A stretch of 64,000 nucleotides of DNA, from contig NC_057719.1 in assembly GCF_004010195.1 (NCBI RefSeq), forward strand, positions 6,842,740 to 6,906,739, written 5' to 3'. The position numbers and the translations under genes are program-made. Under the pieces are notes generated by a model that was given only the letters and a program-made list of their open reading frames with translations, did not search any database and was not told the origin of the DNA. Shown in pieces: positions 26,866 to 53,034 of this stretch (position 1 is the first letter of the stretch; each line of letters opens with the position of its first letter). The stretch comes from Chiloscyllium plagiosum (Eukaryota).

Positions 26866-26903
26866 AAATTTCCTGAGAAGCTCAGATTACCTCTAGTATA
26901 CAG

Positions 26904-27025
26904 GAGCTGAAAATGTGTTGCTGGAACAGCGCAGCAGGTCAGGCAGCATCCAGGGAACAGGAGAATCGACGTTTCGGGCATAAGCCCTTCTTCAGGAATG
27001 AGGAAATTTTCTCCTCACTTTCTCA
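26904..27025 (-). mobile_element. Penelope pLTR mini-insertion, family A, intact hammerhead core at 26968-26995
   Basis: Minus strand ttc-CTGAAGA-a-GGGC-ttat-GCCC-GAAA-cg-TC; direct repeat tatacaggagc at 26897-26907 and 27026-27036. Confidence 0.85.
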
Positions 27026-27215
27026 TATACAGGAGCATTTAAAGCAATGGATCATTTTGTCACTAAATAAATCAATACTTACTGACTTCCCTTACTATGA
27101 CTATTGACCTTTTGAGGACAAATTTTTATCTGTTCCTATCATGTCATAAATATATATTTTTTAACTTGAGATATGGACTTTGCTGACTGGCCAGCATTTA
27201 TTGCACATTACTACT

Positions 27216-28110
27216 TAGAGTCAGAGAGTCTGGAGATGTGCAGCACAGAAACAGACCCTTCGGTCCAACTCATCCATGCTGACCAAATATCCCTACCCAA
27301 TCTAGTCCCACCTGTCAGCATCCGGCCCATATCCGTCCAAGCCCTTCCTGTTCATATACCCATCCAGATGCCTTTTAGATGTTGCAATTGTACTAGCTTC
27401 AACCACTTCCTCTGGCAGCCCATTCCACACACGCACCACCTTCGTGAAAAAGTTGCCCCTTAGGTCTCTTTTATATCTTTCCCCCCCTCACCTTGGACCT
27501 ATGCCCTTTAGTTCTGTAATTCCCCCACCCCAGGGAAAAGATCTTGTCTATTTATCCTATCCCCATCCCTCACGATTTTATAAACCTCTGTAAGGTCACC
27601 CCTCAGCCTCCGACGCTCCACAGAAAACAGTCCTAGCCTATTTAACATCTCCCTATAGCTCAAAGCCTCCAACCCCAGCAACATCCTTGTAAACCTTTTC
27701 TGAACTCTTTCCAAGTCTGACAACATCCTTCCGATTGGAGGGAGACCAGAATTGCAAGCAATATTCCAAAAGTCGCCTAACCAATGTACAGCCACAACAT
27801 GACCTCCCAACTCCTGTACTCAATACTCTGACCAATAAAGGAAAGCATACCAAATGTTGCCTTCACTATCCTATCTACCTGCAACTCCACTTTCAAGGAG
27901 CTATGAACCTGCATTCCAAGGTCTCTTTGTTCAGCAACACACTCGGGCATTACCGTTAAATTAAACTCCGTCTGCCACTCCTCAGCCCATTGGCTCATCT
28001 GATCAAGATCCCATTGTAATCAGAGGTAACTTTCTGCACTCTCCACTTCACCCCCAATTTTGGTGTCATCTGCAAACTTACTATGCCTCTTAAGCTCACA
28101 TCCAAATCAC
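27216..28110 (-). mobile_element. CR1 LINE 3' fragment inserted in the tail of the preceding LINE
   Basis: LERVQKRFTRML, RRLRGDLTEVYKI, gagtcagagagtc tail. Confidence 0.9.
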
Positions 28111-29260
28111 TTGCCCGTCAGAAGATGATGACAAGCTGCCGCCTTGAACTGCTGTTGTCCATGTGCTGTAAGGTGACCCTCAAATACCCCCCTAATGGTA
28201 TTGTGGATTTTTGACTTGGCAACCATGAATGTATGGTGATATTTTGAGTCAGATGGTGAGTGATTTGGAGGGGATCTTTAAGGTGGTGGTGTTCCCATGT
28301 ATCTGCTGCCTTTGTCCTTCTAGATGGAAGTTGTGGATTTGGAAGATGCTGTCTAAGGATATGTGGTGATTTTCTGCAGTGCCTCTTGCAGATGGTACTC
28401 GTTGCAGCTACTGAGTATCAGTGGTAGAGGAAGTGGATATTTGTGGATGTGGTGGTGTCAGTCAAGAAGGCTACATTGTCCTGGATAATGTCCAGTTTCT
28501 TGCCTGAATGGGTGCAGCTCCAAAACTCCAATGAGGACTATTCCATCATGTTTCTGACTTGTCTTATAGATGGGGAGTCAGGACGTGCCCCATTACTCGC
28601 CCCAGTATTTCGAGCCTCTGACCTGCTCTTGTAACCACTGTGTATTTATGTGGTGAGTCCACATGAGTTTCTGATCAAAGTAGCCATCAGGATGTTGTTA
28701 ATGGGAGATTTGATTATGGTAAAACTATTGAATATCAAATTGTGGTGGTTAGATTGTTTGTCTATATCTCCTATTGAAGATGGCCATTACTCAATTTGTG
28801 GTGTAAATGTTACTTGCCATTCGTCAGCCCAAGTCCGGATATTATCCAGATCTTATTGCATTTGAACATGGACTGCTTCAGTATCTGAGTTGTAAATAAT
28901 GCTGAACATTGTGCAATCATTGGCAAGCATCCCCACTACATTCTTTATGATGGAGCCAAGTTTGTTGTTGAAGCAGCTGAAGATGGTTGGGCCTAGATTA
29001 CTACCTTAAGGAACTCTTGCAGAAATGTGGTGGGCATAAGATAATTGACCTCCAAGAAACACTACTATCTTCCAGTGTGCCAAGTATAAGTCCAACCAGC
29101 AGAGAGCTTGCCACCTGATTCCCATTGAATCCATTTTTGCTATGCATCGATGATGTCCCAATTGATTGTCTGCAGCCTTGATGTCAAGGGCTGTCACTCT
29201 CACCTCCCCTCTAGAATTCAGCTCTTTTGTCTATGTTTGAACCAAGGCAGTAGTGAAGTC

Positions 29261-29353
29261 AGAGCTGAAAATGTGTTGCTGGAAAAGCGCAGCAGGTCAG
29301 GCAGCATCCAAGGAACAGGAGAATCGACGTTTCGGGCATAAGCCCTTCTTCAG
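29261..29353 (-). mobile_element. Penelope pLTR mini-insertion, family A, intact hammerhead core at 29326-29353
   Basis: About 90 bp; direct repeat cagtagtgaagtc at 29248-29260 and 29351-29363. Confidence 0.88.
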
Positions 29354-31741
29354 TAGTGAAGTCCGGAACTGAGTGGCCCTGGCAGAACCCAAACTGGGAG
29401 TTGCTGAGCAGATGCTGCTTAAAAGCACTGTTGATGACACCTTCCATCACTCTTTTTAATTGAGTGTAGACTGATGAAGCTGTAATTGTTGGGTTTAATT
29501 TGTCCTAGGCAATTTTCCATGTTGACGGATGGCTGTCAGTGTTATAACTGTGCTGGAAGACCTTGGCTAGGGGAGCAGTAAGTTCTAGAGCACAAGTCTT
29601 CAGTACTATTTCTAGAATGTTGTCAGGGTCCAATGCCTTCAACTGTTTCTTGATATCACCTGGAGTGAATAATTGTCTGAAGACTGGTATCTATCGTGCT
29701 GGGATGGGTCATCCATTCGGCACTACTTCTTGAAGATTGCGAATTCTTAAGCCATATCTTTTGCACTGATGTATCGGGCTCTCCCATCCTTGAGAGTGGT
29801 GATATTTGTGGAGTCTGCTCCTCTAGTGAGTTGTTTGTCCACCACCATTCATGACTCGATGTGGCAGGACTCCAGGGCTTAGATCAGGTCCATTGCTTAT
29901 GCGATTGTTTAGCTCTATCATTTGCTACTTATGCTGTTGGGCAACAAGTAGTCCTGTTTGGTAGTTGCACCTAATATTTAGGTTTGTCTGGTGCTGCTCC
30001 TAGTATACCTTCCTGCGCTCGCCATTGAACTAGGGCTGATTCCCTGGCTTGATAGTAGTGATTGTGTGGATGAAATGCCAGGCTGAGGTTGCAGATTGTG
30101 CTGAAGTACAATTTTGCTGCTGTTAGCTCACAGCACCTCAGATTCCTGCTTGAGTTGCTAGATCCATTCAGTCTGTCCCATTTAGCACATTGATCATGCC
30201 ACACAGCATGATGGAGGGTATTCTCAATGTGAAGGCAGGACTTCATCCCCATAAGATGAAGTGGTCACTTTTACCGATTTGCTGTCATGGACAAATGCAT
30301 CTGCAACTGGCAGATTGGTAAGGATTTTTTTTCTCTTATTTCCCTTACCACCTGCCGCAAACCCAGTCTAGAAGCTGTCTCACAGCTAGTCCCTGACCAG
30401 TTTGATCACTAGTGCTGCTGCTGAGCCACTCTTGGTGATGGTCATTGAAATCCCTCTGCCAGAGTACATTTTATACCCTTTCCATTCTCCTACTTCCCTA
30501 AGTGTTCAATATTAAGTATGATTCATCAACGGAGGGAGGACAGTGTGTGGTAACCAGTAGGTGGTTTCCTTGCCCACATTTAACTTGAAGCCATGAGATT
30601 TCATAGGGTTAACGGCCATTTTGAAGACTCCAGGGACATCTCTGTCCCGACTGTATGCCACTTAGCCGCCACCTCAGCTGGGTCTGTCCTGCCGGTTCGA
30701 CTGAACATATCCAGGGATAGTGGTGTTGGCTGAGGCTTTTAGATATGATTCTGTGAGTATGACAATGTTAGGCTGTTGCTTGACTAGCTTGTGAGACAGC
30801 ACTCTTAATTTTGGCACTTGCCCCCAGATGTTAGTGAGGTGGAACTTTACAGGAACAACAGTTCTGTTCTGTTTTTCTTTTTCTGGTGCTGAGGTTGATG
30901 TCAGATGGGCCATCTGGTTTAATTTTCTTTGAGGCTTTGTTGTGATTAATGCAGTTGAGTCACTTGTTAGGCCATTTCAGAGGCCATTTGAGAGTAAACT
31001 ATATTGCTGTAGATAGAGAATAACGTGTAGGCCAGACCAGGGGAGCATGGCTAATTTCCTTCCTTGACAGACATTAGTGAGTCAGATGGGTTTATCTGAC
31101 GATCAATATATTTTCAATTACAGGTATAGATTTTGAAAAATTGAATTCAAATTCCACCATCTGTTGTGGCAGGGTTCGAACCTGGATTCCTAACTGAGTT
31201 TCTAGATTACGAATCTAGCGTTAATAGCACAAGGCCATTGCCTTCCCTAGATAATCAATGGGAATCGCTTACATCTGTTCAAACAGACAGATGAGCTTGA
31301 AATGAGATGTGCCAAACAATGTAGAGCTCCATCTACAAGAATACCAGCCTAGGTTATCTATCTAAATTCTGAATTGGGACTTAAACCTGAATCCTATAAT
31401 GGAGTCAAGCTTTATTGGGGGGGAAAAAAGACAGCAATGGCAATAAAATGTTGTGGGGAAAAGGTCAAGGCTTTTATTCTTGCTGTTGATTGATTGGCCA
31501 CAAACATGTTCAGATGGATCTGCTGCCAGAATTTACACCTGATTCAGGCTCCATGCACTCATTCCAGGCAAATCCAGCATGAAGTCGTACTGGGGTACAA
31601 CTGGATGGAATATGCACCATGCACATTCTGTCCACTTTTACCAACTGGTGAAGCTGAAAGAAAGCTGTGGGGATGTATGTATTTTGGCCTCTGAATAAAT
31701 AAGCCAAGCCACTTCCCATTGGCTTTTCTCGAAGTTTAGGC

Positions 31742-31902
31742 GAAAGTGAGGACTGCAGAGTCAAAATTAGAGTGGTGCTGGAAAAGCACAGCAGGTCAAG
31801 CAGCATCCAAGGAGTAGCAAAATCGGCATTTTGGGCAAAAGCCCTTCATCAGGACTCGGGATGCTGCCTGACCTGCTGTGCTTTTCCAGCACCACTCTAA
31901 TC
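31742..31902. mobile_element. Penelope pLTR with partial inverted arm
   Basis: ttagagtggtgctggaaaagcacagcaggtc...gcatcc recurs inverted as gatgctgcctgacctgctgtgcttttccagcaccactctaa; decayed hammerhead at about 31825-31852. Confidence 0.8.
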
Positions 31903-33039
31903 ATTTCTCAGAGCTTGGCAGACCTCTTCTTGGCATGTTAACTATAAACCAGCCAGTGCACTCTTATGGTTGCATGGTAAAGTAATGTAGATTTACCTAT
32001 CTTAAACACTTTATTTTGGTTTGGTATTGCCTAGGTTTGATTTCAGATTTGTTTTCTATGGCTGTCTTGAGAGAGGCAAAAGCAATAACAAACAATGGAA
32101 TGACTGAACCAAATCCAACTGCCCAGTTTAAAATATTCTCAAACTTAAACAATGTTCTCTCAAAAGTAGGGCACACTGGGTGGGTGCTGTTGTCATGCTT
32201 ATAACTTGCTGGATTGTATTCTCTGTTGCCATGGTGTTGACAATAACTACAGACTTCAACTGCTGACAGACGACTACTGATCTGCTTGTGGTCAGAAGAT
32301 AGCTTAGTGTACATCAGCTGTCCCCCAGCTACCGCACTTAGCTGTGAAGCAATTATGGTGCAACCCATTTTAACTGCAGATCATGTAACTGTTGAGATGT
32401 TTTAAATCATATTTTGTCTTCAGAAGTTGGAAAATAATTGCTTCAATAATTGATACTGGATGTTGAAAGTATTAAATGGTTATTAAGGTCAGGTAATATA
32501 CGTAGAAAGAGTAACAGAGTTGCAGTTTCTTGCCAATAACCATTACAGTGTTTGTTATATCTTTAATTATGGTTTGAGTACTCTGATACAATAACTGATG
32601 CAAGTGTTTTTCATGCACTTTGGCTGATTTTAAGCTGGTGTGGTAGTACACATGGGTTCAGAATTCTTTCCATTTTCTTCAAAATTAATTTACTATTTTC
32701 ATTGTCAAACCAACATAAAAGCCTTAACTCCGCACCCAGGAAGGAGACTAAACACGTCCAAGGCCTCTGTCAACACTAATCTGAAAATGTTCAACAGGGA
32801 GTGTACATTTTTCTCACCCATTGTCAGCAGCAAGGCTAGGTGTGGGAGTTTGGTTTATGAACCATTTCACAGTTACAAATGAGTAACTGGTTGATCTGTA
32901 ATGTGCTCTCCAAATAATAGTTTCTTGAGTAGATATCCTCTGACTTCAGTTTTATTGTTTAGATATAACATCTAAAGCACCATAGGGTTACTATTTGACC
33001 AGAAAAAATACTACAGCAGCAATATAAATACAGGTTACA

Positions 33040-33540
33040 AGAGCAAGTCAAAGGCTGTGAATTCTGTAATGAAAAGTTGCATCTTAACTGACATAGGCCA
33101 GTCTACTATTTGCCAGGCAGAAGTCAGAACAATGACCTATTGTAAACTTCTGAAATAAATGCAGTTGAAAAAAGACAACTCGGAAACATCTAGGACGAAA
33201 CAGCCTACATTATTGGCAAGCCATCACTGAAGTACAATGGCTGTGATGTTTACTATCTAAAAGGTACACTGTGGTGATTCACTCAGGTTCCTTTTCCATC
33301 ACTCTGCAAACACTCAACTTCTGTCAACCTAAAAGGGCATGAGCAGCAGGTTAATTTGGTCACCATCCACCTACAAGTTCCCCTCCAAATCCCGTACCAT
33401 CCTGATTTCACAGCACCTCAGAATTGTTATGGTGTTGAAGAACATTTGGCCTGTTTTATACACTGTTAGCATTTCAATTTGTGCCAATATTGGGAATGTA
33501 TCACTGTTTCTTCACTGTGTCAAAATCCTGGAACTCTCTA
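33040..33540 (+). mobile_element. Very old copy of the 345-878 LINE family
   Basis: ttaatttggtcaccatccacctacaagttcccctccaaat...ttcactgtgtcaaaatcctggaactc matches 615-725 in order. Confidence 0.5.
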
Positions 33541-33744
33541 TCTTTAAAAGAGTTGTGATTTCAGCCTTAGAATTAATGTTCACTACATGTTAGTATGTAT
33601 GATTTTATATCATAAATAACTTTCACTATAACTTTCAGTGTGCAATGTACTTTTAGCTTGGAAACTATTATTTTTCTTTCAACATCACCAAAGTATTATG
33701 TTCCCAGCAGAAGATATTGAAGACCTGAGGAACAACATTCAGCT

Positions 33745-33872
33745 TGTTGAGCATGCTCAACCATTCAATTAGATTATGGCTGACCATTTATGTGCATACC
33801 ATTTTCCTGCACTATTTCCATATTCTTTTTATCACTAGTCTCCAGAAATCTATTGATTTCTGTCTTGAAATT
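33745..33872 (-). mobile_element. Old CR1 3' tail fragment
   Basis: ccattcaattagattatggctga...aatctattgatttctgtcttgaa resembles 18220-18330 and 22484-22590. Confidence 0.55.
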
Positions 33873-33877
33873 GAGCA

Positions 33878-37385: not shown

Positions 37386-37386
37386 C

Positions 37387-37387
37387 A

Positions 37388-37439
<52 letters not shown>
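37387..37439. repeat. (CA)n microsatellite
   Basis: About 26 CA units, directly visible. Confidence 0.97.
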
Positions 37440-37442
<3 letters not shown>

Positions 37443-37559: not shown

Positions 37560-38945
37560 AATTGAATTGATTTTACTGTCACGTGTAGCGAAGCACAGTG
37601 AAAAGCTTTGTCTTGTGAGCAATGCAGGCAAATCACCGTTAAGTAGCATAGATAAGTAAATAATAGGTAAACAGCGGCAAAAACAAATGCAAGTACATTC
37701 GAATGTTAAGAGTTTGAGAGTCCATTCAGTATTCTAACAGTAAGGTAGAAACGGTTGCGAAATCGGCTGGTGCGTGTTCGAGCTTCTGTACCTCCTCCCT
37801 GATGGTAGAGATTGTAGAAAAACATTGTTCGGGTGGGATCGATCTTTGAGAATGCTGGCGGCCTTTCCATGACAGTGGGCCTGGTAGATGGATTCCCTAG
37901 TCGGGAGTTGACCTTTGTGATTGTCCGGGCCGAGTTCACCACTCTGTAACCATCTACGTTTGTTCAAAAATGTGGTGCTGGAAAAACAGCAGGCCAGGCA
38001 GCATCCGAGGAGCAGGAGAATCAACGTTTTGGGCATAAGCCCTTCTTCAGGATTCCTGAAGAAGGGCTTATGCCCAAAATGTCGATCCTCCTGCTCGGAT
38101 GCTGCCTGGCCTGCTGTGTTTTTCCAGCACGACATTTTTCAACTCTGGTCTCCAGCATCTGCAGTCCTCACTTTCTCCTAGTTGATCTGTAACCATCTAC
38201 AATCTTGAAGGTACAATTGCCATACCAGGTGGTGATACATCCAGACAGAATGCTCTCGATGGCGCACCTATAAAAGTTGGCAAGGGTATTCTTTGTCATG
38301 CCAAATTTCCTCAGCTGCATGAGGAAGAAGAGATGTTGCACCTTTGTAACCAGTGCGCCCACATGAAGAGTCCAAGAAAGCTTATTGTGGATGACCACTC
38401 CCAGGAGCTTGACACTCTCCACTCGTTCCATCTGTGTGCTGTGAATGTATAATGGGGCATGAGTAACATCTACTGAAAGTCAATAATGAGTTGCTTTGTT
38501 TTGCTGGCATTGAGAGGTCTGTTTTTCTCAGTGCACCATTTTTCCAGGTCTTCCACCTCCTGTCAGTAGTCTGTATCATCGCCATCTGAGATTCGACCGA
38601 CAATGGTGGTGGTATCAGCGAACTTGTAAACGGCATTAGTCTGGTATTTGGTGACACAGTCATGGATATTCAGTGAGTACAGTAGGGGGCTGAGTACGCA
38701 CCCCTGGGGGATTCCAGTGTTGAGTGTTAGTGAGGATGAAATCTTGTCCCCAATCTTCACTGATTGCCTGTGGGTCAGGAAACTGTGAATCCAGTTGCAG
38801 AGAGTGGGGCTTAGTCTGACTTCACTAAGTTTAGTAATCTGTCTGGAGGGGATAATAGTGTTGAAGGCAGAACTGTAGTCAATGAGTAGGATTCTTATGT
38901 CGCTGTTCTTGGTGTCAAGATGTTCTAGGGAGGATTGAGGGGCAA
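37560..38945 (-). mobile_element. Rex1/Babar LINE RT-to-3' fragment
   Basis: LTLNTGIPQGCVLSPLLYSL..HDC...YKFADTTTIVG, NFYRCAIESILSGCITTWYG, LPSGRRYRS. Confidence 0.9.
37958..38185. mobile_element. Palindromic Penelope pLTR insertion with 15-bp TSD
   Basis: Arms about 37966-38052 and 38054-38140 around a 1-nt spacer; tctgtaaccatctac at 37943-37957 and 38186-38200. Confidence 0.88.
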
Positions 38946-39952: not shown

Positions 39953-40873
39953 GCTGTCCTTGTGTGGAATCTTATCAAAAGTCTTCTGAAACCCAAGTAT
40001 ACCACTTTCAGTGGTTCTCCTTTGTCTATGCTGCAAGTAACATAGAGACGTGGTGATCTACTGCACAAAAAAAAATCCCTTTGACCCACCATGTCCATGC
40101 TGGTCAAAAACAACCACCTATCTACTCTAATCTCTCTTTCCAGAATGTTTTGGTGTTGCAAGTGAACTTCTAAATAGTAATGTTGAGAGTGTTTTTGCCT
40201 TTGCCACCTTCCAGAGAGATTCCAATTCCCACTAATACCTAGGTGAAAAAGATTTTTCTCTCCTCCCCTTTAAACCTTGTGTCCCTTGCCTTAAATTTAT
40301 GTCTCTGGTCACTGATCCCTCCATCAAAGGAAAAATGTTATTCCTCTCTATCTCTGTCCCTCAAAAGTTTATACATAGCAATCATGACCCCCCCCCCGCC
40401 CCCCCAACCAATTCTCCGCTCTAAGGAAAACAACCTCCGTCTGTCCAATCTATCTCCATAACTGAAACTCTCAAGCCCAGGCAATATTGTAAATCCCCTT
40501 TGCATCTTCTCCAGTGCATTCTCATCTCCTCCTCTTCCCCCCCCCAATAATATGGATTCCTAGTACTATACACAATACTTGAGCTGTAGCCTAACCAACA
40601 ATTTGAATGGTTCCATCGTAACCTCCCTGGTCTTAAACACAATTCTTCGACAAATAAAGGCAAGTATTCCATATGTTGTCTTAACTGCTTTATTCACCTG
40701 TCCTGATGCCTTAAAGGACTACTGTACATGCACACCAAGGTACATTTGATTCTCTGTGCTTCCCAGGGTTCTACACCACATTGTCTTCCCTTGCCTTGTT
40801 TGACCTGTCCAAGTATACCCTTGCATTTATCCTGATTTAATTACATTTGCCATTTATCAGCTTATTAGACCAG

Positions 40874-41481
40874 GTGAAAGTGAGGACTGCAGATGCTGAA
40901 CATCAGAGTCAAGAGTGTGGTGCTGGAAAAGCACAGCAGGTCAGGCTGCATCAGAGAAGCAGGAAAATTGACATTTCAGGTAAAAGCCCTTCATCAGGAA
41001 TGAGGCTGGGAGCCTCGGGGGTGGAGAGACAAATGGGAGGGGGATAGAGCTGCGGGGAGGGTAGTTGAGTGCACAAGGTGGATGGAGGTGGTGGTAAAGA
41101 TGGTAGGTCGGAGGGGAGGGTGGAGTGGATAGGTGGGAAGGAAGATGGACAAAATGGGACAGGTCATGAGGATGGTGCTGAGCTGGAAGGTTGGAACTAG
41201 GGTACGGTTGGGGATGGGAAATGAGGAAACTGGTGAAATCCACATTGATGCCATGTGGTTTGAGGGTTCCGAGACAAGATGAGGCATTCTTCCTCCAGGC
41301 ATTGGGTGGTAAGGGAGTGACTATGGAGAAGGCCCAGGATCTGCATGTCCTCGGCAGAGGCGGGGGGGAGAAGAGTTGAAATGTTTGGCCACGGGGCGGT
41401 GGGGTTGATTGGTGCCGGTGTCCCCGAGATATTTCTGAAGTGCTCTGGGAGTAGGCATCCTGTCTCCCCAGTGTTGAGGAA
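40874..41481 (-). mobile_element. Penelope-like element 3' part (end of GIY-YIG region plus pLTR)
   Basis: pLTR gtgaaagtgaggactgcagatgctg...; decayed hammerhead at about 40970-40997; paralogous to 41504-42439. Confidence 0.82.
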
Positions 41482-41503
41482 ACCAGTTCAGTTATATTCT
41501 AAG

Positions 41504-42439
41504 TCTAGATTAGAGTGGTGCTGGAAAAGCACAGCAGGTCAGGCAGCATCAGAGGAGCAGGAAAATTGATGTTTCAGGCAGGAGCCCTTCGTCAGGAATG
41601 AGGCTGGGAGCCTCGAGGTGGAGCGATAAATGGGAGGGGGTTGGGGCCAGGGAGAAGGAAGCTAAGAGTGCAATAAGTGGATGGAGGTGGGGATAAAGGT
41701 GATAAGTCGGAGATGCTGCCTCACAGTGCCAGAGACCTGGGTTCAATTCCCGCCTCAGGCATCTCTGTGCGGAATTTGCACATTTTTCCTGTGTCTATGT
41801 GGGTTTCCTCTGGGTGCTCTGGTTTCCTCCCATAATCCAAGAATGTGCAGGTTAGGTGAATTGGCCATGCTAAATTGCCCGTAGTGTTAGGCGAAGGGGT
41901 AAATATAAGGGAATGGGTCTGGGTGGGTTGTGCTTCGGCGGGTCGGTGTGGACTTGTTGGGCCGAAGGGCCTGTTTACACACTAAGTAATCTAATTTAAA
42001 GGTGGGTGGAGTGGCTAGGTGGGAAGGAAAATTGGCAGGTAGGACAGGTCATCCGTATGGTGCTGAGCTGGAAGGTTGGAACTGGGGTAAATTGGGGGGA
42101 GGGGAAATGAACAAACTGGTGAAGTCTACATTGATGCCCTGGGGTTGAAGTGTTCTGAGGTGGAAAATGAGGTGTTCTTCCTCCAGGCATTGGGTGGTGA
42201 GGGAGTGGAGATGGAGGAGGCCCAGGACCTGCATGTCTTTGGCAGAGGCCTCCTCCATTTACACTCTTAGCTACCTTCTCCCCAGCCCCACTTTATCTTC
42301 CAGCCTCATTCCTGATGAAGGGCTCCTGCCCGAAACATCGATTTTCCTGCTCCTTGGATGCTGCCTAACCTGCTGTGCTTTTCCAGCACCACTCTAATCT
42401 CGACTCTGATCTCCAGCATCTGCGGTCCTCACTTTCATC
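41504..42439 (-). mobile_element. Penelope-like element with inverted pLTR arms
   Basis: QCLEEEHLIFHLRTLQPQGINVDF (PLE endonuclease C-terminus); hammerhead cores at about 41568-41595 (-) and 42312-42339 (+); near-TSD ta[t/c]attctaag at 41493-41503 and 42440-42450. Confidence 0.85.
41713..41996 (+). mobile_element. HE1-type V-SINE, 5'-truncated, inside Penelope
   Basis: B box gggttcaattcc, V-domain, tail ggcctgtttacacactaagtaatctaat. Confidence 0.88.
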
Positions 42440-43574
42440 TACATTCTAAGCTTCTTCTCACTATTTACCACTCCACCAATTTTTGCATCTTTTGCAAACT
42501 TACTGAATAACTCTCCTACATACCAATCTAAATCATTTATGTCAACCACTGACAGCAAGTGTGCCAGAATTGACCTGTGTGGGATCCCACTGGACTTCGC
42601 TCAGACTCTCCTTCTGCTTCCTGCCACTCAGTCAAATTTGCCAAATTTCATTCGATCCCAATTCTTTGCTGTGAGTCTTCCATGTGCAACCTTGCTATAC
42701 GCTGTCAAAAGCATTGCCCTCATCTACACACTTGAAAAATTCAGTCAAAATGATCAGACATAACCCCTATTTATGACTAACCTGTATCTCCAAATGCCGA
42801 TGAACTGAGCCTCAGAATTGTTCCAATAGTTCCCTAGTACTGAGGTTAGACAAATGGCCTGTAGTTTCCTGGTGCTCACTCTCTCCTCCAGCACCTCTGC
42901 TGTGGCCAGAGAAGCAGAGACATTGTATCCAAGGCCGCTGTATTTTCTCATCTCATTAAAACCTGCATTTCATCTGGCCTGGCAATTTATCTACTGTTAA
43001 GCCAGCCAGGCCACTCAATCTTCTGTCAATGCTAATTTCTTTGTATCCATAGATCTTTTTCCCTGATTTCTGTAGTCCTATAGTCCCTCTCATTAGTGAA
43101 CACCAATCCAAAGTACTTGTTTAGAAACCCTACCTGCCTCCTCTGGCTCCATATTCACATTACCACCATTGTCCTTAATGAGCCTGTTTCCCTCTTCATC
43201 CTTTTATCCTTTAATATCCCTTGAAAACAACTCGGGGTTTTCTTTTATTTTACCTCCCAGTATCCTTTCACACCCCTTTTGCCTCTCCTAGTTCCCCTTT
43301 ATGTTTTCTGTTATGCATTCTATTATCCTCTAAAGCTTCAGCATCTTCAGAAAAAAAACCCACCTCCAGATTTGTCAAACATTTACCTTTCACTTATTTA
43401 TATTAACCTTGAAAACAGTTGTCCAATTTTGAGAAGGTCTGTTATCACATCTTTAATAAGAAATTTCAATATTTTCCACGCTACCGACATCAAATGAACA
43501 GTTCTGTACTTGTCTGCCCTCCCTTCCCTCCCGCTCTCCCTTCCAACAGTGTATTTACATTTGCTTCTTTATAG

Positions 43575-43865: not shown

Positions 43866-44004
43866 AAGCTGGTTTTCTTTAAGAAAGGAGGTATATTGTA
43901 CTCAGAGAGGGAATACCAGCTTTCTTCCAAATAGCCTGTTTGTGGCAAAACAGAAACTAATATATTGCAACTGCTGTTGGCGGTGACTGCATAGATACTC
44001 GTTG

Positions 44005-45270
44005 CTCTATGATATATTGATGAGGGTAGTGCAGTTGATGTGGTTTACATGGAGTTAAGTAAGGCCTTTGACATGGTGTCATGTGAAAGGTTGGTCCAAA
44101 AGATGAGCCCATGGGAAACAAGGCAAGTTGGCAAACTGGATCCAAAATTGGCTTACAAATAGGAGATAAAGGGTGATGGTGATGTTTTTATTTCAAAGCC
44201 TCTGACTAAGGTGTACCACAGATTATTGTTAATGCTTTCATTATACCTTCTATATTCAAGTTATTAATGTATAGGTTTGCAGATGACAGGAGAATTGATG
44301 GTGTTGAATAGTGAAGAGGATGGTTTCCAGCTACAGTCTGATGTTGTTCAGCTGGTAAATTGGACAGGAGCATGGACAGATGGAATTTAATTCTTATAAG
44401 GGTGAGGTGATGCGTTTTGGGAGGTCTAATAAAGAAAAGATTTACACAATGAATGGTAGGTCCATAGAGAGTATTGAGGAACAAAGACACCTTGATGTAC
44501 AAGTCATGAGGTGTCAGCACAGACAGGGTGGTGGAGAAGGCATGTGGGATGCTTGCCCTCATTAGCCAAGTATAGAATACAGAAGCAGAGAAGTCTTTTT
44601 GCAACTGTCTAAAATATGTTAGTCAAAAATGCATGCATCTATAGTCTGTTTTGATAATATAGCAATGTGATTACATTGGAGAGGGTGGAGAAGGAAGTCA
44701 CCAGGTGGTAGTCTGAGATGGAAAATCTGTTATAAGGAGAGACCGGATAGGCTGGGTTTCTTTTCCCTGGCTCAGGTGACTGAGGGAAATCCGATACGAA
44801 ATTATGGGAGGTGTTGATAGGATACATTTGAGAGAATGTTTTCCCACATGGTAGATTTATCCAAGACCAGAAGGCATAAGTTAAAAGTGAAGAGTAGCTT
44901 AGAGAGGATCTGAGAGAACTTCTCACCACAGCGCAGTAGAAATGTGCATTGTGCTGCATAAGAGGATGGTGGAGGAGGAAGGAATTCTCTGAACATCTTA
45001 GGAGTATCTGCACAAGCACTTAAAAGGCTAGGATAGTAGACTCTGGACCAAGTGCCACTCTTTAAGAAGGGTAGTAAAGACAAGCCAGGGAACTATAGAC
45101 CAGTGAGCCTGACGTCAGTGGTGGGCAAGTTGTTGGAGGGAATCCTGAGGGACAGGATGTCCATGCTGTACATCTCTGACTCTAAGTGCAAGCAAATGGG
45201 ATTAATATAGATTGGTGTTTGTTGATCATCTTAGATGTGAGGGGTGAGGAGCCATTTCTATGCTGTATGA
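44005..45270 (+). mobile_element. Old CR1 RT-to-3' fragment
   Basis: AVDVVYME.SKAFD, QMEFNSYKGEVMRFGRSN. Confidence 0.8.
45056..45183 (+). mobile_element. Young internally deleted CR1 mini-insertion
   Basis: Open PLFKKGSKDKPGNYRPVSLTSVVGKLLEGILRDRM fused to the tail ccatgctgtacatctctgactct; aagtgc at 45050-45055 and 45184-45189. Confidence 0.8.
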
Positions 45271-45659
45271 CTTAGTTTGTCAAGTCATCAAGACTCTAAA
45301 AGCAATTCTTTTATCTCCCCTAAAAGTTTTGGCTTGTGTTTTCCAATAAGCCATAGCTAGACCACCTTCTCTTTGACTTTTTAAAAAAAAACTTTCATTT
45401 CCAAGAAATCGCATGACAAAACCTCTTCAAACCAGGAACATCCAAACAGTTCCATAAATGTAAACATTCCAGGAGTTATTGTCGATACAATATATTTGTA
45501 TTTCCAACAGCTGATACCTTCAAAATTAATGTATAATTCTATCTTATTATGGTTGCTGTTTCCTAAAGGCTGCTGTGTAGCATGATAATTCATTTTCCCT
45601 TTCTCGTTACTTTGGATAAAGGATATCGCTTGATCCTAAGTTGGTTTTTCAACATGCTG

Positions 45660-45845
45660 CTTCAGCAATTCATCCTCCCAGCATTAGTGCAGACTTTGTC
45701 CATATGCAATATGTTACCCATGTTACATCAGTCTCCAATTTGTTGATTAAACTGTACCCAGCATTACTACTACTACTTGGCCTATAAACAGCGCTGACCA
45801 ATGTTTGCTGGCCCTTGCCATTCCTCCGCTCCACCTTAACTGATT
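45660..45845 (-). mobile_element. CR1 endonuclease fragment
   Basis: VERRNGKGQQTLVSAVYRP motif. Confidence 0.65.
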
Positions 45846-45854
45846 GATTGTATA

Positions 45855-47420
45855 TAGAGTCATAGAGATGTACAGCACGGAAATGGAACCTTTGGTCCAA
45901 CTCCTTCATGCCGACTGATATCCTAATCTAGTCCCATTTGCCAGCACTTGGCCCATATCCCTCTAAACTCTTCCTATTCATATACTCATCCAGATGCCTT
46001 TTAAATCTTGTAATTGTACCACTTCCTCTGGCAGCTCATTGCATACATGCAGCATCCTCTGTGTGAAAAAGTTGCTCCTTAGGCTCCTTGTAAATCTTTC
46101 CCCTCACCTTAAACCTAGTTTTGGACTCCCCCACCCCAGGGGAAGACCTTGTTTATTTACCCTATCCATGTCCCTGTGATTTCATAAACGTCTATAAGGT
46201 CACCCCTGAGCCTCCAATTCTCCAGGAAAAACCTCCCCAATATATTCAGCCTTTCCCAATATCGCAAACCTTCCAGCCCTGGCAATATACCTGTAAATCT
46301 TTGCTGAACCCTTTCAAGTTTCACAAAATCCTACCAATAGCATGAAAACCAGTGTTGCATACAATATGTCAAAAGTGGCCTAATCAACTTCCTGTACAGC
46401 TGCAACATTTCCTCCCAACTCCTATACTCAGTCCTCTGACCAATAAAGGAAAGGGTACCAATCCTATCTATCTGCAACTCTACTTTCAAGGAACGATGAA
46501 CCTGCACTCCAAGGTCTCTGTTCAGCAACACTCCCTAGGACCTTACCATTAAGTATATAAGTCCTGCCATTGTCTTTCCAAAATATAGCGCCTTGCATTT
46601 ATCTAAATTAAACTCCATCTGCCACTGTATGGCCCATTGGTTCATCTGATCAAGGTCCTGTTGTACTCTGAGGTAACTTCTTCATTGTCCACTACACCAC
46701 CTCCTATTTTTATGTCATCCATAAACTTACTAACTGTACCTCCTCCTATGTTTACATCCAAATCACTTATATAAATGACGAAAAGCAGTGGACCCAGCAC
46801 CGACCCTTGTGGCACAGGCTTCCAATCTGAAAGGCAACCTCCACCACCACCCTGTCTTCTGCCTTCGAGCCAGTTTTGTATCTAAATGGCTAGTTCTTCC
46901 TGTGTTCCATGTGATCTTACCTTTATAACCAGTCTACCATGAGGATTGTTCTCTAATGCTTTACTGAATTCCATATAGATCATGTCCACCACTCTGCCTT
47001 CTTCAATCCTCTTCGTTACAACTTTAGAAAATTCAATAATTAGTGAGACCATGATTTCCCATGCACAAAGTCGTGTTGACTATCCCTAATTAGTCCTTGC
47101 CCATCCAAATACATGTAAATCCTGTCCCTCAGGATTCCCTCCAACAACTGGTCCAACACAGATGTCAGCCTCACTCCTCTCTAGTTCCCTGGCTTTTCCT
47201 TACCACCTTTCTTAAACAGTTGCACCACATTGCCAACCTCCAGTCTTCAGGCACCTCATCTGTGATTATCGATGATCTAAATATCTCAGCAAGGGACCCA
47301 GCAATCACTTCCCTAGATTCCCACAGAGTTCTAGGGTCCTGGGGATTTATCCACCTTTCTGCTTTTTAAGACATCCAGCACCACCACTTCTGTAATGTGG
47401 ACATTTTTCAAAATGTCACC
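45855..47420 (-). mobile_element. CR1 LINE RT-to-3' end
   Basis: tagagtcatagagatg tail; RDLGVQVHRSLKVELQIDR, LYRKLIRPLLTYC. Confidence 0.9.
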
Positions 47421-47584
47421 ATCTATTTCCCTCACATTCTAACTGCTGCAGCTTGTTTTTCTTTCAGTTGTGGAAAAGTTGAAGATTTGAGTTGCATGAG
47501 CAATTATTGTGGGTTCAGCTCAATACATTGCTAAATAGTTACTTTCTGTGTCCTTTCAAACAGACTGAGGAAGACTTGACTATA

Positions 47585-47790
47585 GGGTAACACAGTGGCT
47601 TAGTGGTTAGCATTGTTGCTGCACAGCACCAGGAACCTGGGTTCACTTCCAGCCTTTGACTGTGCAAACTCAACACAGACATTCTCCCTATGACTGCATG
47701 GATTTCCTCCTAGTGCTCCGGTTTCCTCCCATGGTCCAAAGATGTGCAGGATTTGTCATGCCAATATGCCCTTAGTGTCTAGGGATCTGC
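47585..47790 (+). mobile_element. HE1-type V-SINE
   Basis: A box tggcttagtgg, B box gggttcacttcc, V-domain gtgctccggtttcctccc. Confidence 0.82.
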
Positions 47791-47986
47791 AGGCTAGGAG
47801 GCTGAAATAGATCACCTGTTTGGTACTTCTGATTAAACATTGTAGTGAATGCTTCAGCCTTAACATTTTCACTGATGTGCTGGACACCCCCATTATTTAA
47901 GATGGGTATGTGTTGTACAGCCTGTTCTGCATTAGTACCACATCTAATCTCCTCCTGGGCTGCTTGGCTGGTCAGCTTCATTTTTG

Positions 47987-48217
47987 AGGAGAAAGTGAGG
48001 TCTGCAGATGCTGGAGATCAGAGCTGAAAATGTGTTGCTGGAAAAGCGCAGCAGGTCAGGCAACATCCAGGGAACAGGAGAATTGACGTTTCGGGCATAA
48101 GCCCTTCAGGAATGAGGAAAGTTTCCTCATTCCTGAAGAAGGGCTTGTGCCCGAAACGTCGATTCTCCTGTTCCCTGGATGCTGCCTGACCTGCTGCGCT
48201 TTTCCAGCAACACATTT
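47987..48217. mobile_element. Palindromic Penelope pLTR insertion, family A, with 15-bp TSD
   Basis: Arms 48022-48120 and 48122-48223; tcagcttcatttttg at 47972-47986 and 48218-48232. Confidence 0.9.
48130..48165 (+). ncRNA. Minimal type I hammerhead ribozyme motif (family A)
   Basis: ttc-CTGAAGA-a-GGGC-ttgt-GCCC-GAAA-cg-TC-gattc; palindromic ACGT stem III, GUC triplet; stem I weak. Confidence 0.7.
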
Positions 48218-50254
48218 TCAGCTTCATTTTTGCCAATTGCACACAATCACTTGGAAAAGGTTTGTCAAAAAGTTAAAGACCAATGTCTGATGAAATGGTT
48301 GATCATGTTTGTGCCTGGAGTGAAATGTTCAATGCCTTTATGGTTGCCAGTGGCTTTAAAGCATGTGGTTTCCAAATTATTCAATCTCCTCTTAAGACCG
48401 CAAGACACCCCCCCCCCCCCCCCCCCCCCCCCCCCAAGAAGCAGAAATTAGGCCATTCAGCCCATCAAGTCTGCTCTGCCATTCAGTCATAGCTAATAAG
48501 TTTCTCAACTGCATTCTCCTGCTTTCTCTCTGTAACCCTTGATCCCCTTGATAATCAAGAACCCATCTATCTCTGTCTTAAATATACTAAATAACCTGGC
48601 CTCCACAGCCTTTTGTGGAAGTGAATTTCATAGATTGACCACGCTGTACCTTGAGGTTTCTTCTTATCTCCGTTCTCAAAGGTCTCCCCTTTACTCTACT
48701 CTAAGGATGTGCCCTTGGGTCCTCATCTCCGACCAATGGAAACATTATTTCAACATATACTCTGTCCGGGCCATTCAGTATTCTGTGTGTTTCACATTGG
48801 ATCTCTCCCCTCCCCCCACCCCATCCTTCTAAACTCTATCGAGGATAGACCCAGAGTCCTTAAATGTTCCTCCTATCTTCAGCTTTTTATTCCTGTGACA
48901 ATTCTCGTGAACCTTCTCTGAATGTGCTGCAGAGTCAGTACATCCTTGCTGAGATATGGGGCATAACATTCTGCACAATACTCCAAATCTGGTCTGACCA
49001 GAACCTTACAGAGCCTCAAAAGTACATACCTGCTTTTATATTCAAGCCCTCTTAAAATAAATGACATCTGACTCAACCTGCAGTTTACCTTGAGAATCCT
49101 GGACTATAACTCCCAAGTCTTTTTACACTTCAGACTTCTGAATTTTAGAAAATAGTCCGTGTCCCTCTTTTTTTTTTCCCCCAGCCAAAATGCATGACTT
49201 CACACCTTCCCAAGTTGTACTCTACCTGCCACCTCCTTGTCCACTCTTCTAACCTAGTCACATTCTTCTGCAGCCTCCCCGGTGCCTCAATGCTATCTGC
49301 TCTCTCTTTGTATCATCTGCAAACTTCGCCAGAATGCCCTCAGTTCCTTCATCCAAATCATTACTATACAAAGTGAAATGTTGTGGTCCCAACACTGACC
49401 CTTGCAGAACACCACTTCTCACTAGCTGCCATCCTGAGAAAGATCCTTTTTATCCCCACTCTGTGCTTTCTGCCAGACAGCCAAGCTTCTGTCTGTGCTC
49501 GCACCTTTCCTCTAACATCATGGGCCCTTATCTTACTCTGCAGTCTCCTTTGCGGCACCTTGTCAAAGGCCTTCCTGAAGTTCAGGTCAATAACATCCAT
49601 TGGCTCTCCTTGGTCTAACCTGCTCAATACTTCCTCAAAACATTCTAGCAGATTTGTCAGGTATGACCTCCCCTTAATGAAACCATGCTGACTTTGCCCT
49701 ATTTCACCATGCACGTCCAAGTATTCAGATATCTCCTCCTTCACAATGGACTCCAGGATCTTTCCCATGACTGAGGTTAAGCTAAGCAGTTGGTAATTTT
49801 CCATGTGTTGACTTAGTCCCTTTTTAAACATGGGGTCATGTTAGCAATTTTCCAGTCCTCTGGGACGTTCCCTGGCTCTCAGCAATTCCTGAAAGATCAC
49901 CACTAATGCCTCCATTATTTCTTCAGCTATCTCCCTTAGAACTCTGGGGTGTGGTCCATCTGGTCCAAGTGATTTATCCACCTTTAGGCCGTTTAGCTTT
50001 TCTTGTATCTTCATGATGATCATCATATTCAGCTCTACCACCTGACATTCTTGAACTTTTGGGATATTACTTACATTTTTCACTGAGGACTGACACAAAG
50101 TAATTATTCAGTTCCTCAGCCATTTCCTTGTTCCCCACTACCATCTCCCCAGCATCATTTTCCAGCTGCCCAATGTCCTCTCTTGCTGTTATATATCTAA
50201 AGAAATTATTACTTCTGTCTTTATATTACTGGCTAGCTTACCCTCATTTTTTTA

Positions 50255-50598
50255 AGGAGTCCCTGCAGTGTGTAAATAGGCCATTTGGCCCTACAAGTCC
50301 ACACTGACTCTCTTAAGAGTAACCCATCCAGACCCATTCCCCTACCCTATTACTTTACATTTGCCCCTGACTAATGCACCTAACCTACACAGCCCTGAAC
50401 ACTATCGTCAATTTAGCATGGCCAACTCACCTAACCTGCACATCTTTGGATTGTGGGAGGAATCCAGAGCACCCGGAGGAAACCCACACAGACATGGGGA
50501 GAATGTGACAGTTCCACACAGACAGTTGCCCAAGGGTGGAATCAAATCTGGGTCCCCAGCGCTGTGAGGCAGCAGTGCTAACCACTGAGCTACCGTGA
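50255..50598 (-). mobile_element. HE1-type V-SINE
   Basis: Minus strand tagctcagtggttagcactgctgcctcacagcgc..., V-domain and CR1-like tail. Confidence 0.88.
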
Positions 50599-50867
50599 CA
50601 CCTGAATGTAATTTTCTCCCCCTCTCATTTCTCTTTTTTTTTTCTGTTGCCTTTTGTTGACCTTGCTTCCCAATCCTCCGATTTCCCACTGCCATTCAGC
50701 ACATTATATGCTTTCTCTTTTGCTTTTATGCTATCTCTGACTTCCCTCGTCAGCCATGGTTGCCTCATGCTTCCTGTTCAGAGACAAAAAAAACTGCAGA
50801 TGCTGGAATCCAAGGTAGACCAGCAGGAGGCTGAGAACACAGCAATACAGGCAGCATCAAGAGGTAA

Positions 50868-51303
50868 AGAACAAAAAAGAACAAAGAAAATTTACAGTCC
50901 AGGAACAGGCCCTTCAGCCCTCCAAGCCTGAACCAATCCAAATGTACTGTTTAAACCTGTCGGTCAATTCCTAAGCATCTGTATCCCTCTACTCCCCACC
51001 TATTCATGCATTTATCTAGACGCATCTTAAATGAATCTACCGTGCCTGCCTCTACCACCTCTGCTGGCAATGCGATCCAAACGCCCGCCACCCTGTGTGA
51101 AGTACTTGCCGCGTGTATCCCCCTTAAACTTTCCACCTCTCACCTTGAAAGCATGACTTCTCATTATTGAATCCTTCACTCTAGGAAAAAGCTAGTCTCT
51201 ATCCACCCTGTCTATACCCTTCATGATTATATAAACCTCAATCAGGCCCCCCCTCAATCTCCTTTTTTTTCCTGATGAAAATAAACCTAATCTACCCAAC
51301 TTT
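50868..51303 (-). mobile_element. CR1 3' fragment inserted in the Penelope pLTR
   Basis: aagaacaaag tail repeats; RRLRGGLIEVYIIMKGIDRVD, WIALPAEVVEAGT. Confidence 0.85.
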
Positions 51304-51820
51304 TCTGACATTTTGGCTGTAACCCTTCGGGACTGAGTGGGAATAAGGGGAGCCGCAGATAGAGGTGGGGTGTGGCAGGGTGGTGAGGAGGGGATAGGTG
51401 GAGACAGGTACAGGGTACATCCTGATTGGTCGATACGGGGGATGAATCTAGTAAGTGGCTGAGAGGAATGGAAGGGAGGGGGTGCAGCTGGGAAGGGAGT
51501 TGGATGGGAAGGGAGGTTATTTGAAATTGGAGAACTCAATATTGAGTCCTCTGGGCTGTAGGCTGTCCAAGCGGAAGATGAGGTGTTCCTCCTCTAGTTT
51601 GTGGTTTGATTCGTTGTAGTAATGGAAGAGGCCAAGGACAGTCATGTTGGAAAGGGAATGGGAGGGGGAATTAAAATGGATGGTGACTGGGAGGTCTGGT
51701 TGGCCACTGCAGGCCTAGCTGAGATACTCGGTGAACTGTTCCCTTAATTTACATTTGGTCTCCCCAACGCAGAGAAGACCCCATCGGGAGCACAGAATAC
51801 AGTAAACTAGGTTGGAGAAG

Positions 51821-51914
51821 AGCTGAAAATGTGTTGCTGGAAAAGCGCAGCAGGTCAGACAGCATCCAAGGAACAGGAGAATTGACGTTTCGGTCATAAG
51901 CCCTTCTTCAGGAA
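51821..51914 (-). mobile_element. Penelope pLTR mini-insertion, family A, inside a Penelope ORF
   Basis: Near-identical to 29261-29353; ggagaagag at 51814-51822 and 51915-51923. Confidence 0.87.
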
Positions 51915-53034
51915 GGAGAAGAGGCAGGTGAACCTTTGTCCCATCTGGAAGGGCTGTTTGGGGCCCTGGGTGGAAGTGAGGGTGTTGGTGTGCCAGCAGG
52001 TTTTGCATCTTTTCTGGTTGTAGGAGAAGATACCTGTGGGTTCAGGGGTGAAGGTGGGGAGAATGGTGCAAACCAAGGATTGGTGAAAGGAATGGTCCTT
52101 GCGGAAGATAACGAGAGGTGGGAGGGGAAGATGTCCTTGGTGGTGGGGTCGAGTTGGAGTTGGGAATGTTTAAGGATGATTTGAATGCAGAGACTGGTGG
52201 GTTGGTGGGTGGGGACAAGGGCGACCCTGTCTGTATTGCGTTTGGAGAAGGGTTGTTATAGCAATGGAATGGGGAATGGAGGTGGTGTGCTGGAGGGCTA
52301 TCTGGAGGTAGGGGAAAGATGTTGCTCGAAATAAATGGACATCTGGGATACTTGGAAGTGGAATGTGTCCTCGTCTGCGCAGATGCAGTGGAGGCAGAGA
52401 AATTGGAAGACTGGGATGGAGTTCTTGCTGGATACTGGGTGGGAGGAGGTGCAGTCTAGGTAGCTGTAAGAGTTTGTGGTTTTATAGTAAATGTCTGTCT
52501 GGAGGCTCGCTGGAGATGGAAACGGAGAGGTCAAGAAAGGGTGTCCGAGATGGACCGAGGGTGGGGCGGAAGTTGTGGGCGAAGTCGATTTACTGCTCCA
52601 GTTCAGCCTGGGTACAGGATGCTGCACCAATGCAGTCATTGATGTAACGGCAGAAGAGTTGGGCACAGTGCCTGTATAGGTAGTAAGGAGGGACGATTCA
52701 ATGTGGCTGACAAAGAGGCAGGCAATTTCCTTGGTACCATGCTTCTTTTTCCTCAGGATGAATCTTTGCAGTGTCTGTGGAGTACACTCTCAAACTGCTG
52801 CCATTGCTGTTGCACTGTCTTTCCTGCTAGACTCCTCTCCCAGTTAGTTCTGCCCAGCTCCTCCCTTGTGCCGCTGTAGTTGTCTTTATTCAGTTGTAAT
52901 GCCATTATCTGATTCTGTCTTCGCCCTCTCAAAATTGCTGAGTAAATTCAATCATATTATGATCACTGTCTCCTAAGAGTTCCTTCACTTTTACCTCCCT
53001 TTATTACGTTTGCCTCATTGCACCACAGTAAACC

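Follow-up and report, generated by a model that had tools for sequence, protein, structure and literature searches.

How did short inserts, each with a hammerhead-type core, come to lie scattered through a shark genome: as a ribozyme family moved by borrowed machinery, or as products of a larger retroelement? We addressed this in a window of 64,000 nucleotides (the whole stretch of DNA analysed here) from Chiloscyllium plagiosum, for which the initial annotation had listed five such inserts (c1 to c5) flanked by direct repeats. Exact target-site duplications (TSDs) of 9-15 bp are indeed found at all five. Among about 19,700 random boundary pairs from the window, a shared word of at least 9 bp arises by chance in 0.68% of cases, one of at least 11 bp in 0.11% and one of 15 bp in 0.015%. 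The inventory was right as far as it went, all five loci being real, but it had overlooked four more (31738, 40872, 41504-42442 and 57420; c6 to c9), two of them long. The nine loci make up ~3.6% of the window, one per 7 kb; two faint nhmmer hits (56244 and 50835) are not counted among them. The loci are as follows, with 5' ends given relative to the CUGA core of the hammerhead.

26897..26907, plus strand: left TSD of c1, 11 bp, its final 4 nt also matching the element template
26908..27006, minus strand: body of c1, a tail-less pLTR arm of the young subfamily; 5' end at position -11 relative to the C of CUGA; minimal hammerhead motif intact, core start 26995, predicted cut after 26968
27007..27025, plus strand: short inverted piece of c1, in which 27012-27024 are the final 13 nt of the tail
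27026..27036, plus strand: right TSD of c1, 11 bp
29248..29363, minus strand: c2 with its TSDs (29248-29260 and 29351-29363, 13 bp); one tail-less arm, 29261-29350; 5' end at +1 to +4; in an older LINE RT frame
31738..31902, unstranded: c6, older subfamily; tailed arm on the minus strand ending at -2 and a 47-nt inverted tail-less arm; possible decayed 13-bp TSD (10/13 matching)
37943..38200, unstranded: c3 with its TSDs (37943-37957 and 38186-38200, 15 bp); palindrome 37958-38185, centre near 38053; tail-less arm on minus, tailed on plus, ends at -2 and -3; core mutated in both arms; in an older LINE, within its C-terminal frame
40872..41480, minus strand: c7, 609 bp, tailed; no clear TSD at its ends
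41496..42450, unstranded: c8, long copy, 8-bp TSD; tail-less arm on minus (41504-41712 and 42001-42249, to about -366) with a nested repeat at ~41714-41998 in between; inverted tailed arm on plus (about 42250-42442), intact hammerhead motif at 42312
47972..48232, unstranded: c4 with its TSDs (47972-47986 and 48218-48232, 15 bp); palindrome 47987-48217, centre 48121; tailed arm on minus, tail-less on plus, ends at -11/-12; 3-nt deletion in the left-arm core, right arm intact
51814..51923, minus strand: c5 with its TSDs (51814-51822 and 51915-51923, 9 bp); one tail-less arm, 51823-51914; 5' end at -3; mismatch in stem II
51451..52738, minus strand: host of c5, an older, frameshifted Penelope-like ORF remnant running from the RT end to GIY-YIG
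57420..57516, minus strand: c9, tailed arm that breaks off immediately downstream of the hammerhead; ends without a clear TSD

Three of the inserts (c2, c3 and c5) had been said to interrupt older LINE or Penelope reading frames, and their flanks are in register. At c2 and c3 a LINE-type protein continues in frame across the TSD; the host of c3 has Pfam matches to RVT_1 (E 5.5e-14) and PF09004, and the two flank peptides of c2, for which the Pfam search gave no match, match LINE-RT-bearing proteins. The target of c5 is the GIY-YIG region of its host, with residues 215-278 and 283-379 of protein P0042 on opposite sides of the insert. At c1, a contig from public run X9 (organism B) stops at 26907, the final base of the left TSD, with 18 further letters unaligned, and contigs of runs X1 and X5 (organism A) carry on into the insert. 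At c2, c3 and c5 the in-frame flanks serve as a substitute for an empty orthologous site. The TSDs and the in-frame hosts bear out the proposal that the inserts landed independently, by way of Penelope machinery.

Identity of the inserts

The short inserts represent the pLTR, the terminal module of a Penelope-like element (PLE) with an RT as well as a GIY-YIG domain at its C terminus, and not a separate family. Two long copies join this module to the end of the ORF: c7 runs on for 483 nt upstream of its hammerhead and thereby reaches the Penelope ORF at its GIY-YIG end, and the ORF-bearing c8 has the same inverted, TSD-bounded layout as short copies. A profile search of proteins with a window peptide returned 113 matches, and the relatives P0070 and P0071 match RVT_1 and GIY-YIG (in most cases the latter scores slightly below the Pfam threshold). 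Two window peptides gave no match in word-indexed protein searches, and a Pfam search with the window peptides by themselves gave none to GIY-YIG. Neither an intact RT of the parent nor a long young-subfamily copy is present in the window. Pattern scans for further loci returned 0 in viral sequences, 0 and 0 in metagenomes and 0 in prokaryote genomes, and a search of sequencing runs gave no RNA run among those listed as carriers.

The description of the five inserts as made of one pLTR segment needs amendment, because two are two-arm palindromes and one (c1) is a body followed by a 13-nt inverted tail piece; the latter may be a palindrome that collapsed between two 6-nt repeats. The tail of ~36 nt is the gap between two alternative 3' ends, and at all five inverted loci it is found on one arm and is absent from the other. 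As a family-wide continuation it is seen in 276 RNA reads, with an agreement of 0.94. The RT and GIY-YIG parent, the one-arm tail and the minimal type I hammerhead place the family among the EN+ PLEs. In the parts of PMC8557442 and PMC3846280 that describe such elements, insertions are 5' truncated, adjoin an inverted copy and optionally carry a tail of 30-40 bp; inverted arms, the one-arm tail and palindromes at the 5' junction are common to both. TSDs are 8-15 bp here and 8-10 bp in PMC3846280, and the reading frame, which begins inside the pLTR, has ~26 codons there in the shark and 12-22 in the rotifer element (PMC8557442, PMC3846280). In contrast, the units in these descriptions are uncommon and for the most part bracket an ORF, whereas seven of our nine loci lack an ORF and six have a common 5' boundary.

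The minimal type I hammerhead motif that had been noted is present, but it lies at the 5' edge of the inserts and not at their centre. A hammerhead descriptor finds seven hits in the window versus 0.1 in shuffled sequences; with helix I included, it is passed by only two of the seven arms (26995 and 48133). The 5' end of c2 leaves its helix I without the 5' strand. Helix II is 94% paired, with two double-sided changes, and its covariation is not above that of shuffles; an Rfam search returned no hammerhead, its four matches (E up to 5) all being below the gathering score. Solo PLE hammerheads, as presented in PMC4209133, are likewise type I and minimal, having a single unpaired base ahead of helix II, a palindromic minimal helix III and a short helix I; they too are mostly single and dispersed, with some opposite-strand pairs 100-700 bp apart. 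Helix II is of 4 bp here, and the available text of that paper names no shark and maps neither ends nor TSDs. A fold in which the CUGA core pairs with the 3' end of tail-less arms was considered and set aside: it is predicted in young copies and absent from older ones, and the folds do not surpass those of shuffles.

Alternative 3' ends ~36 nt apart, inverted arms and solo minimal hammerheads thus form a pattern that is already published, so that novelty is low, and as a repeat family the inserts are a matter of ordinary annotation. Only one feature is less ordinary: rather than ending at random, most copies in the window break off directly ahead of the ribozyme motif. In the open literature searched we found no paper on pLTR-only insertions in sharks or on the hammerhead as a 5' boundary.

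The 5' boundary and a proposed run-off model

At six of the nine loci the 5' end falls within -12 to +1 of the CUGA core, with either 3' end; since such ends occur in tailed and tail-less arms alike, it is position and not length that is fixed. With exponential truncation as the null, this clustering has a P of 4e-3 to 5e-6 (mean lengths of 60-400). The ends form two classes, at -2 to -4 and at -11/-12. In public contigs over the 5' edge of c1, seven of the eight joints listed (out of more than 2,000) leave at -3 or -4; at four 'go-back' joints among these eight, a 4-nt direct repeat is a confounder. The word with an A at -4 is initiator-like, going by the sequence and the initiator consensus; this A also pairs in helix I, which could account for its conservation. 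RNA 5' ends in one single-cell polyA run (~2% read), with both strands covered, gave no site where many molecules start.

The best explanation, to which we give a probability of about 0.6, is that each stub is its own insertion, made by an EN+ Penelope-like enzyme from the RNA of that element as a run-off product. A stereotyped short Penelope insertion product had been one of two readings offered initially, and it is supported. According to the sections of PMC11167929 on the PLE protein, both target strands are cut and extended, and cDNA starts at two RNA-internal sites that define the tail; RNA is required 3' of the start sites and to +172, hammerhead cleavage is dispensable, and 5' truncation of the template gives a shorter product. 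In the shark, the mRNA would hold two copies of the start sites, one in the 5' pLTR and one at the far end, and 2-6 nt of pairing would link the target 3' end to the tail-less site of the RNA. Priming on one strand would give a single arm, and priming on both an inverted pair in which the cDNA ends are joined. A start at the 5' pLTR copy would leave 90-135 nt to the RNA 5' end, just ahead of the hammerhead, and a start at the far copy would give longer, variably truncated products, c7 and c8 among them. The stubs would then be by-products, mostly non-functional from insertion on, with ends that the ribozyme does not set.

All four young tail-less junctions show microhomology between target and template, of 2-6 nt (6 nt at c4), with a total of 16 nt versus 1.2 expected (P 3e-5, or 5e-4 with a lenient null) in a test that omits c3, c6 and c8, for which the subfamily template is uncertain. 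At c3, seven unexplained bases at the tail-less junction weigh against microhomology as a general feature. Poseidon of Anolis carolinensis (PAc; PMC11167929) is alike in that two internal starts define the tail, one of them 85-92 nt beyond the site of hammerhead cleavage (in the shark, 98 nt for the end of the tail and 58-69 nt for the tail-less ends), and in that insertion proceeds without cleavage. It differs in reportedly initiating without target homology, as against the 2-6 nt here; pLTR-only run-off copies are not discussed in the available text.

Tentatively, with odds a little short of even, we propose a strong-stop-like class, in which reverse transcription that begins internally, on the 5' pLTR of full-length mRNA, would run off at a transcription start located on the hammerhead's front edge. 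Stubs in very large number across the genome would record, in vivo, that start, both RT starts and the 2-6 nt of target-RNA pairing, and cDNAs from opposite strands would anneal end-wise to give the palindromes. The start site of D. virilis Penelope, ~120 nt upstream of the hammerhead and not at its edge, counts against the run-off model, as do the two classes of ends and the RNA run in which no common start is seen. We did not find such a consequence of internal initiation in vivo stated in the portions of the literature searched. What follows priming in Penelope insertion has yet to be validated (according to the text available of PMC11167929), so a fixed 5' boundary matters if it is the mRNA start: the many young, TSD-bounded stubs would then be an in vivo data set on start sites, priming microhomology and the origin of inverted arms and tails.

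Other explanations

The strongest competitor, though an unlikely one, explains the sharp 5' boundary as an RT stop at a folded hammerhead or a bound protein, on a longer RNA primed at the far 3' pLTR; the boundary would then be a truncation hot spot. Two unrelated hammerhead families in the window also start at most about 10 nt from their core (1037, 13284 and 56244), an observation that speaks for the run-off model too; in favour of an RT stop, the same structural landmark ends three unrelated families, some copies (c7, c8) read through, and heavy 5' truncation is usual in PLEs in the literature. However, the arms do not fold better than shuffles (z from -0.4 to +0.2 for six young-subfamily stretches; -1.5 for c8R), the ends lie 5' of helix II, past the one stable hairpin, which has already been copied, and the paired arm ends of c3 and c4 differ by at most 1 nt.

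A ribozyme-centred, non-autonomous family mobilised in trans, the other initial reading, is not supported. The short copies, at 77-96% pairwise identity, fall into at least two or three subfamilies and four layouts, have no sequence of their own, are laid out like the ORF-bearing copy and have ends off the cut site. In a narrower form, which we regard as improbable, some short copies would be transcribed from an internal promoter and moved in trans by the Penelope protein. Young copies vary at only 2-5 of 85 positions; a diagnostic base and the -11 end are common to c1 and c4, the other base and ends near -3/+1 to c2 and c5 (two versus two). The literature describes an internal promoter in Penelope, non-autonomous PLE derivatives, and rotifer pLTRs judged sufficient in cis for mobilisation in trans. 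Against this, RNA 3' of the start sites, required in vitro, is absent from the inserted stub. Some short copies may nevertheless serve as source elements.

Much less probable still is an origin as solo pLTRs: longer elements would have recombined between their two direct pLTRs, in the manner of solo LTRs. This would retain the TSD, fix the 5' end as the start of the parental 5' pLTR and suit the single-arm c2 and c5 as well as, in a formal sense, an inverted-plus-direct pair; but each stub would need one full-length insertion, at about one locus per 7 kb, and 5' ends vary by a few bases among near-identical copies. Recombination between 100-bp repeats is, moreover, inefficient.

We give least credence of all to retrozyme monomers, units excised by the hammerhead, circularised and reinserted: the units carry the minimal type I motif, dispersed monomers are known from vertebrates, including one chondrichthyan (literature), and one listed contig joint ends exactly at the predicted cut, 26968 (two runs), but none of the nine loci starts at the cut site (+29), so that the stubs are not such monomers, no head-to-tail array of units occurs in the window (nine TRF rows), and core or helix I is broken in five of seven arms. 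The joint at 26968 was rejected as proof of ribozyme cleavage in vivo, as a 4-nt direct repeat adjoins it and neighbouring joints lie at 26965-26966. Metazoan non-LTR retrozymes, in the passages describing them in PMC7229834 and bioRxiv 10.64898/2026.07.22.740005, are likewise non-coding, hammerhead-bearing, pLTR-related and dispersed as monomers; they differ in having head-to-tail units, each with a hammerhead, and self-cleaved or circular RNA, whereas the shark loci are single or head-to-head. In genomes of this kind, what is tallied as 'hammerhead elements' or retrozyme monomers may be, for the most part, dead insertion by-products.

Target sites and anatomy of the insertions

The five short insertions stand where the initial annotation had placed them, each flanked by exact direct repeats of 11, 13, 15, 15 and 9 bp; at random pairs of boundaries in the window (about 19,700 trials), at least 9 bases are shared in 0.68% of cases and at least 11 in 0.11%. 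Three of them split older LINE or Penelope frames, as had also been claimed: the flanks, translated separately, stay in frame across the duplicated bases at 29261 (a LINE RT-like frame), 37958 (a LINE C-terminus, in a host whose RT matches RVT_1) and 51823 (a Penelope GIY-YIG region). The five loci are independent insertions. The annotation knew only these short loci, but a profile search found 13 strong arms, each one copy of the pLTR module of a Penelope-like element (PLE), at nine loci in the window, two of them long. Signed positions refer to the sense strand, with the C of CUGA as +1 and cleavage predicted after +28.

Loci of the family (target-site duplications, TSDs, included for c1 to c5 and c8)
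26897-27036 (c1): young; body plus 13 nt of tail, inverted
29248-29363 (c2): young; single arm, tail-less
31738-31902 (c6): older subfamily; inverted
37943-38200 (c3): near-perfect palindrome, ends of paired arms differing by at most 1 nt
40872-41480 (c7): long, extending to -483
41496-42450 (c8): long, extending to about -366; inverted
47972-48232 (c4): young; near-perfect palindrome, ends of paired arms differing by at most 1 nt
51814-51923 (c5): young; single arm, tail-less
57420-57516 (c9): further locus

The 3' ends of the arms fall into two groups, tail-less (about +86 to +97) and tailed (about +126), and in 5/5 inverted loci (c1, c3, c4, c6 and c8) just one arm is tailed. Both long copies enter an ORF end whose relatives have RT and GIY-YIG domains; moreover, c8 has an 8-bp TSD and an inverted layout with a single tail, like the short inverted loci. 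Young copies differ from each other at 2-5 of 85 positions, while older copies show 77-89% identity to the young ones and to one another.

Three of the four tailed arms translated (47987-48074 (-) and homologous arms) contain an open frame, about 26 codons long, from +47 to the tail end; a 3-nt indel within it separates the young from the older subfamily, and it possibly encodes the parent ORF's N-terminus. In c3, the tail ends in a pyrimidine-rich stretch followed by AG, apparently resembling a splice acceptor. A SINE-like repeat of about 285 bp (41714-41998; also 47591-47805, 50267-50597 and 15971-16228) is nested within c8 and is thus younger than that Penelope copy.

The hammerhead and the 5' boundary

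Seven motifs in the window fit a hammerhead descriptor (0.1 per shuffled sequence), and helix II pairs at 94% across 12 arms, with covariation not above that of shuffles; no Rfam match to a hammerhead was found in the window. Among the seven arms at the five named loci, core and helix I are both kept only in c1 and in the right arm of c4; in the rest, helix I lacks its 5' strand or the core is altered. Of the nine loci, 0 begin at the cleavage site, and the window holds no head-to-tail array of the unit. The hammerhead is therefore a passenger at the 5' edge, and not the centre of the element as one option of the initial annotation had it.

That edge is sharp. In 6/9 loci the 5'-most end lies within -12 to +1, for arms of 95 nt and of 135 nt alike (P = 4e-3 to 5e-6 that any 14-nt window would hold six of the nine, under a model null of exponential truncation with mean 60-400 nt). 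Public contigs agree weakly: of the 8 joint rows at the c1 5' edge in a listing that omitted more than 2,000 joints, 7 depart at -3 or -4, four of them confounded by a 4-nt repeat. Three copies from two unrelated hammerhead families likewise begin no more than about 10 nt from the core. At the other end, the first 4, 2, 4 and 6 bases of the TSD match the template at 4/4 young tail-less junctions, a sum of 16 against 1.2 expected (P = 3e-5; allowing the start to shift by 4 gives 5e-4; c3, c6 and c8 were left out). In the open literature (Repbase, Dfam, subscription papers and one relevant supplementary figure lay outside the search) we found no paper on a fixed 5' boundary or on stubs, as we call these short insertions, in sharks; the cause of the boundary and the priming microhomology are the testable points that remain.

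A second, unrelated hammerhead-headed family occurs at:
954-1046 (-): copy with core at 1037
13275-13400 (+): copy with core at 13284
4911-4958: fragment

Helix II has 5 bp and helix I 3 bp; one copy is tail-less, the other has a tail of about 38 nt, and both begin about 8-9 nt ahead of the core. Divergent, older pLTR-like ends lie at 56244-56328 (+), with a hammerhead-like core and a longer helix II, and at 50835-50917 (-).

Origin of the stubs

The stubs are real, well-formed and abundant, and follow a pattern already known for PLEs. The standard description of PLE insertions, in the accessible parts of PMC8557442, PMC8969392 and PMC3846280, comprises extensive truncation at the 5' end, an inverted copy alongside and an optional tail of 30-40 bp; the window loci share the inverted arm and the optional tail (here about 36 nt). 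Dispersed single minimal hammerheads, some on opposite strands, are called 'probably related to truncated PLEs' in the available text of PMC4209133, and the comparison literature, likewise in part, also takes in PMC2377424 and PMC6765202. Between the two options of the initial annotation, we favour a Penelope insertion product, made by PLEs in cis and not a separate family (probability about 0.85).

How such products might arise is suggested by Anolis Poseidon, for which the accessible portion of PMC11167929 reports cutting and extension of both target strands, internal initiation of cDNA at two positions in the RNA that delimit the tail, shorter products from 5'-truncated templates, a requirement for RNA out to +172, past the starts at +111-118, and no need for hammerhead cleavage. 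By analogy, a parent mRNA starting in the 5' pLTR would carry the start sites twice, near its 5' end and again at the opposite end. Initiation at the near copy would give run-off cDNA of 90-135 nt, and initiation at the far copy long copies of the c7/c8 type; priming by both target strands would yield one tailed and one tail-less arm with a head-to-head junction. Stubs carry no RNA beyond the tail's 3' end and would seldom be expected to transpose further. We consider this whole chain, from internal start on the 5' pLTR through run-off to two-strand priming, somewhat more plausible than its negation. Against this chain, the RNA run shows no pile-up of molecule starts, the 5' ends form two classes, and transcription in D. 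virilis starts some 120 nt 5' of the hammerhead (PMC4209133 and PMC2377424, parts available).

A reverse transcriptase stop at the hammerhead could set the 5' boundary instead, which we regard as rather unlikely. Short source elements mobilised in trans, the other option of the annotation, are more doubtful still; in their favour, a single base and the 5' end both group c1 with c4 and c2 with c5. Solo pLTRs left by recombination are very improbable, and retrozyme monomers least credible of all, the published definition of a non-LTR retrozyme (accessible text of PMC7229834 and bioRxiv 10.64898/2026.07.22.740005) not describing loci with neither array nor cut-site ends.

Sequencing reads and other features of the window

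In an RNA run, molecules usually read on into the tail (276 reads, agreement 0.94) and both strands are represented; no position where many molecules start or stop was seen in this library, of a type blind to short uncapped or circular RNAs. Runs of organism A extend from the left flank of c1 into the insert. A contig of organism B tracks that flank to 26907, the TSD end, followed by 18 unaligned letters, as might be seen at an empty site. At 27049/27050, contigs of X1 (a run of organism A) and X9 (organism B) align to the right flank of c1 from 27050 on, preceded by 454 and 80 unaligned letters, which suggests that the window and both samples differ by an indel beside the right TSD.

Whale shark, skates and rays supply the closest named relatives of the window's ORF remnants, which suggests a cartilaginous fish as host. 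Three matched host-gene proteins (P0013, P0023 and P0106, including a skate 7TM receptor) contain a segment resembling the Penelope GIY-YIG C-terminus, and are probably gene models extending into Penelope-type repeats. An inverted LINE fragment forms a long hairpin at 12716-12970, and a miRNA-family match at 12782-12970, scoring far below the gathering threshold, is a spurious product of it. An assembly gap of 919 N occupies 18616-19534.
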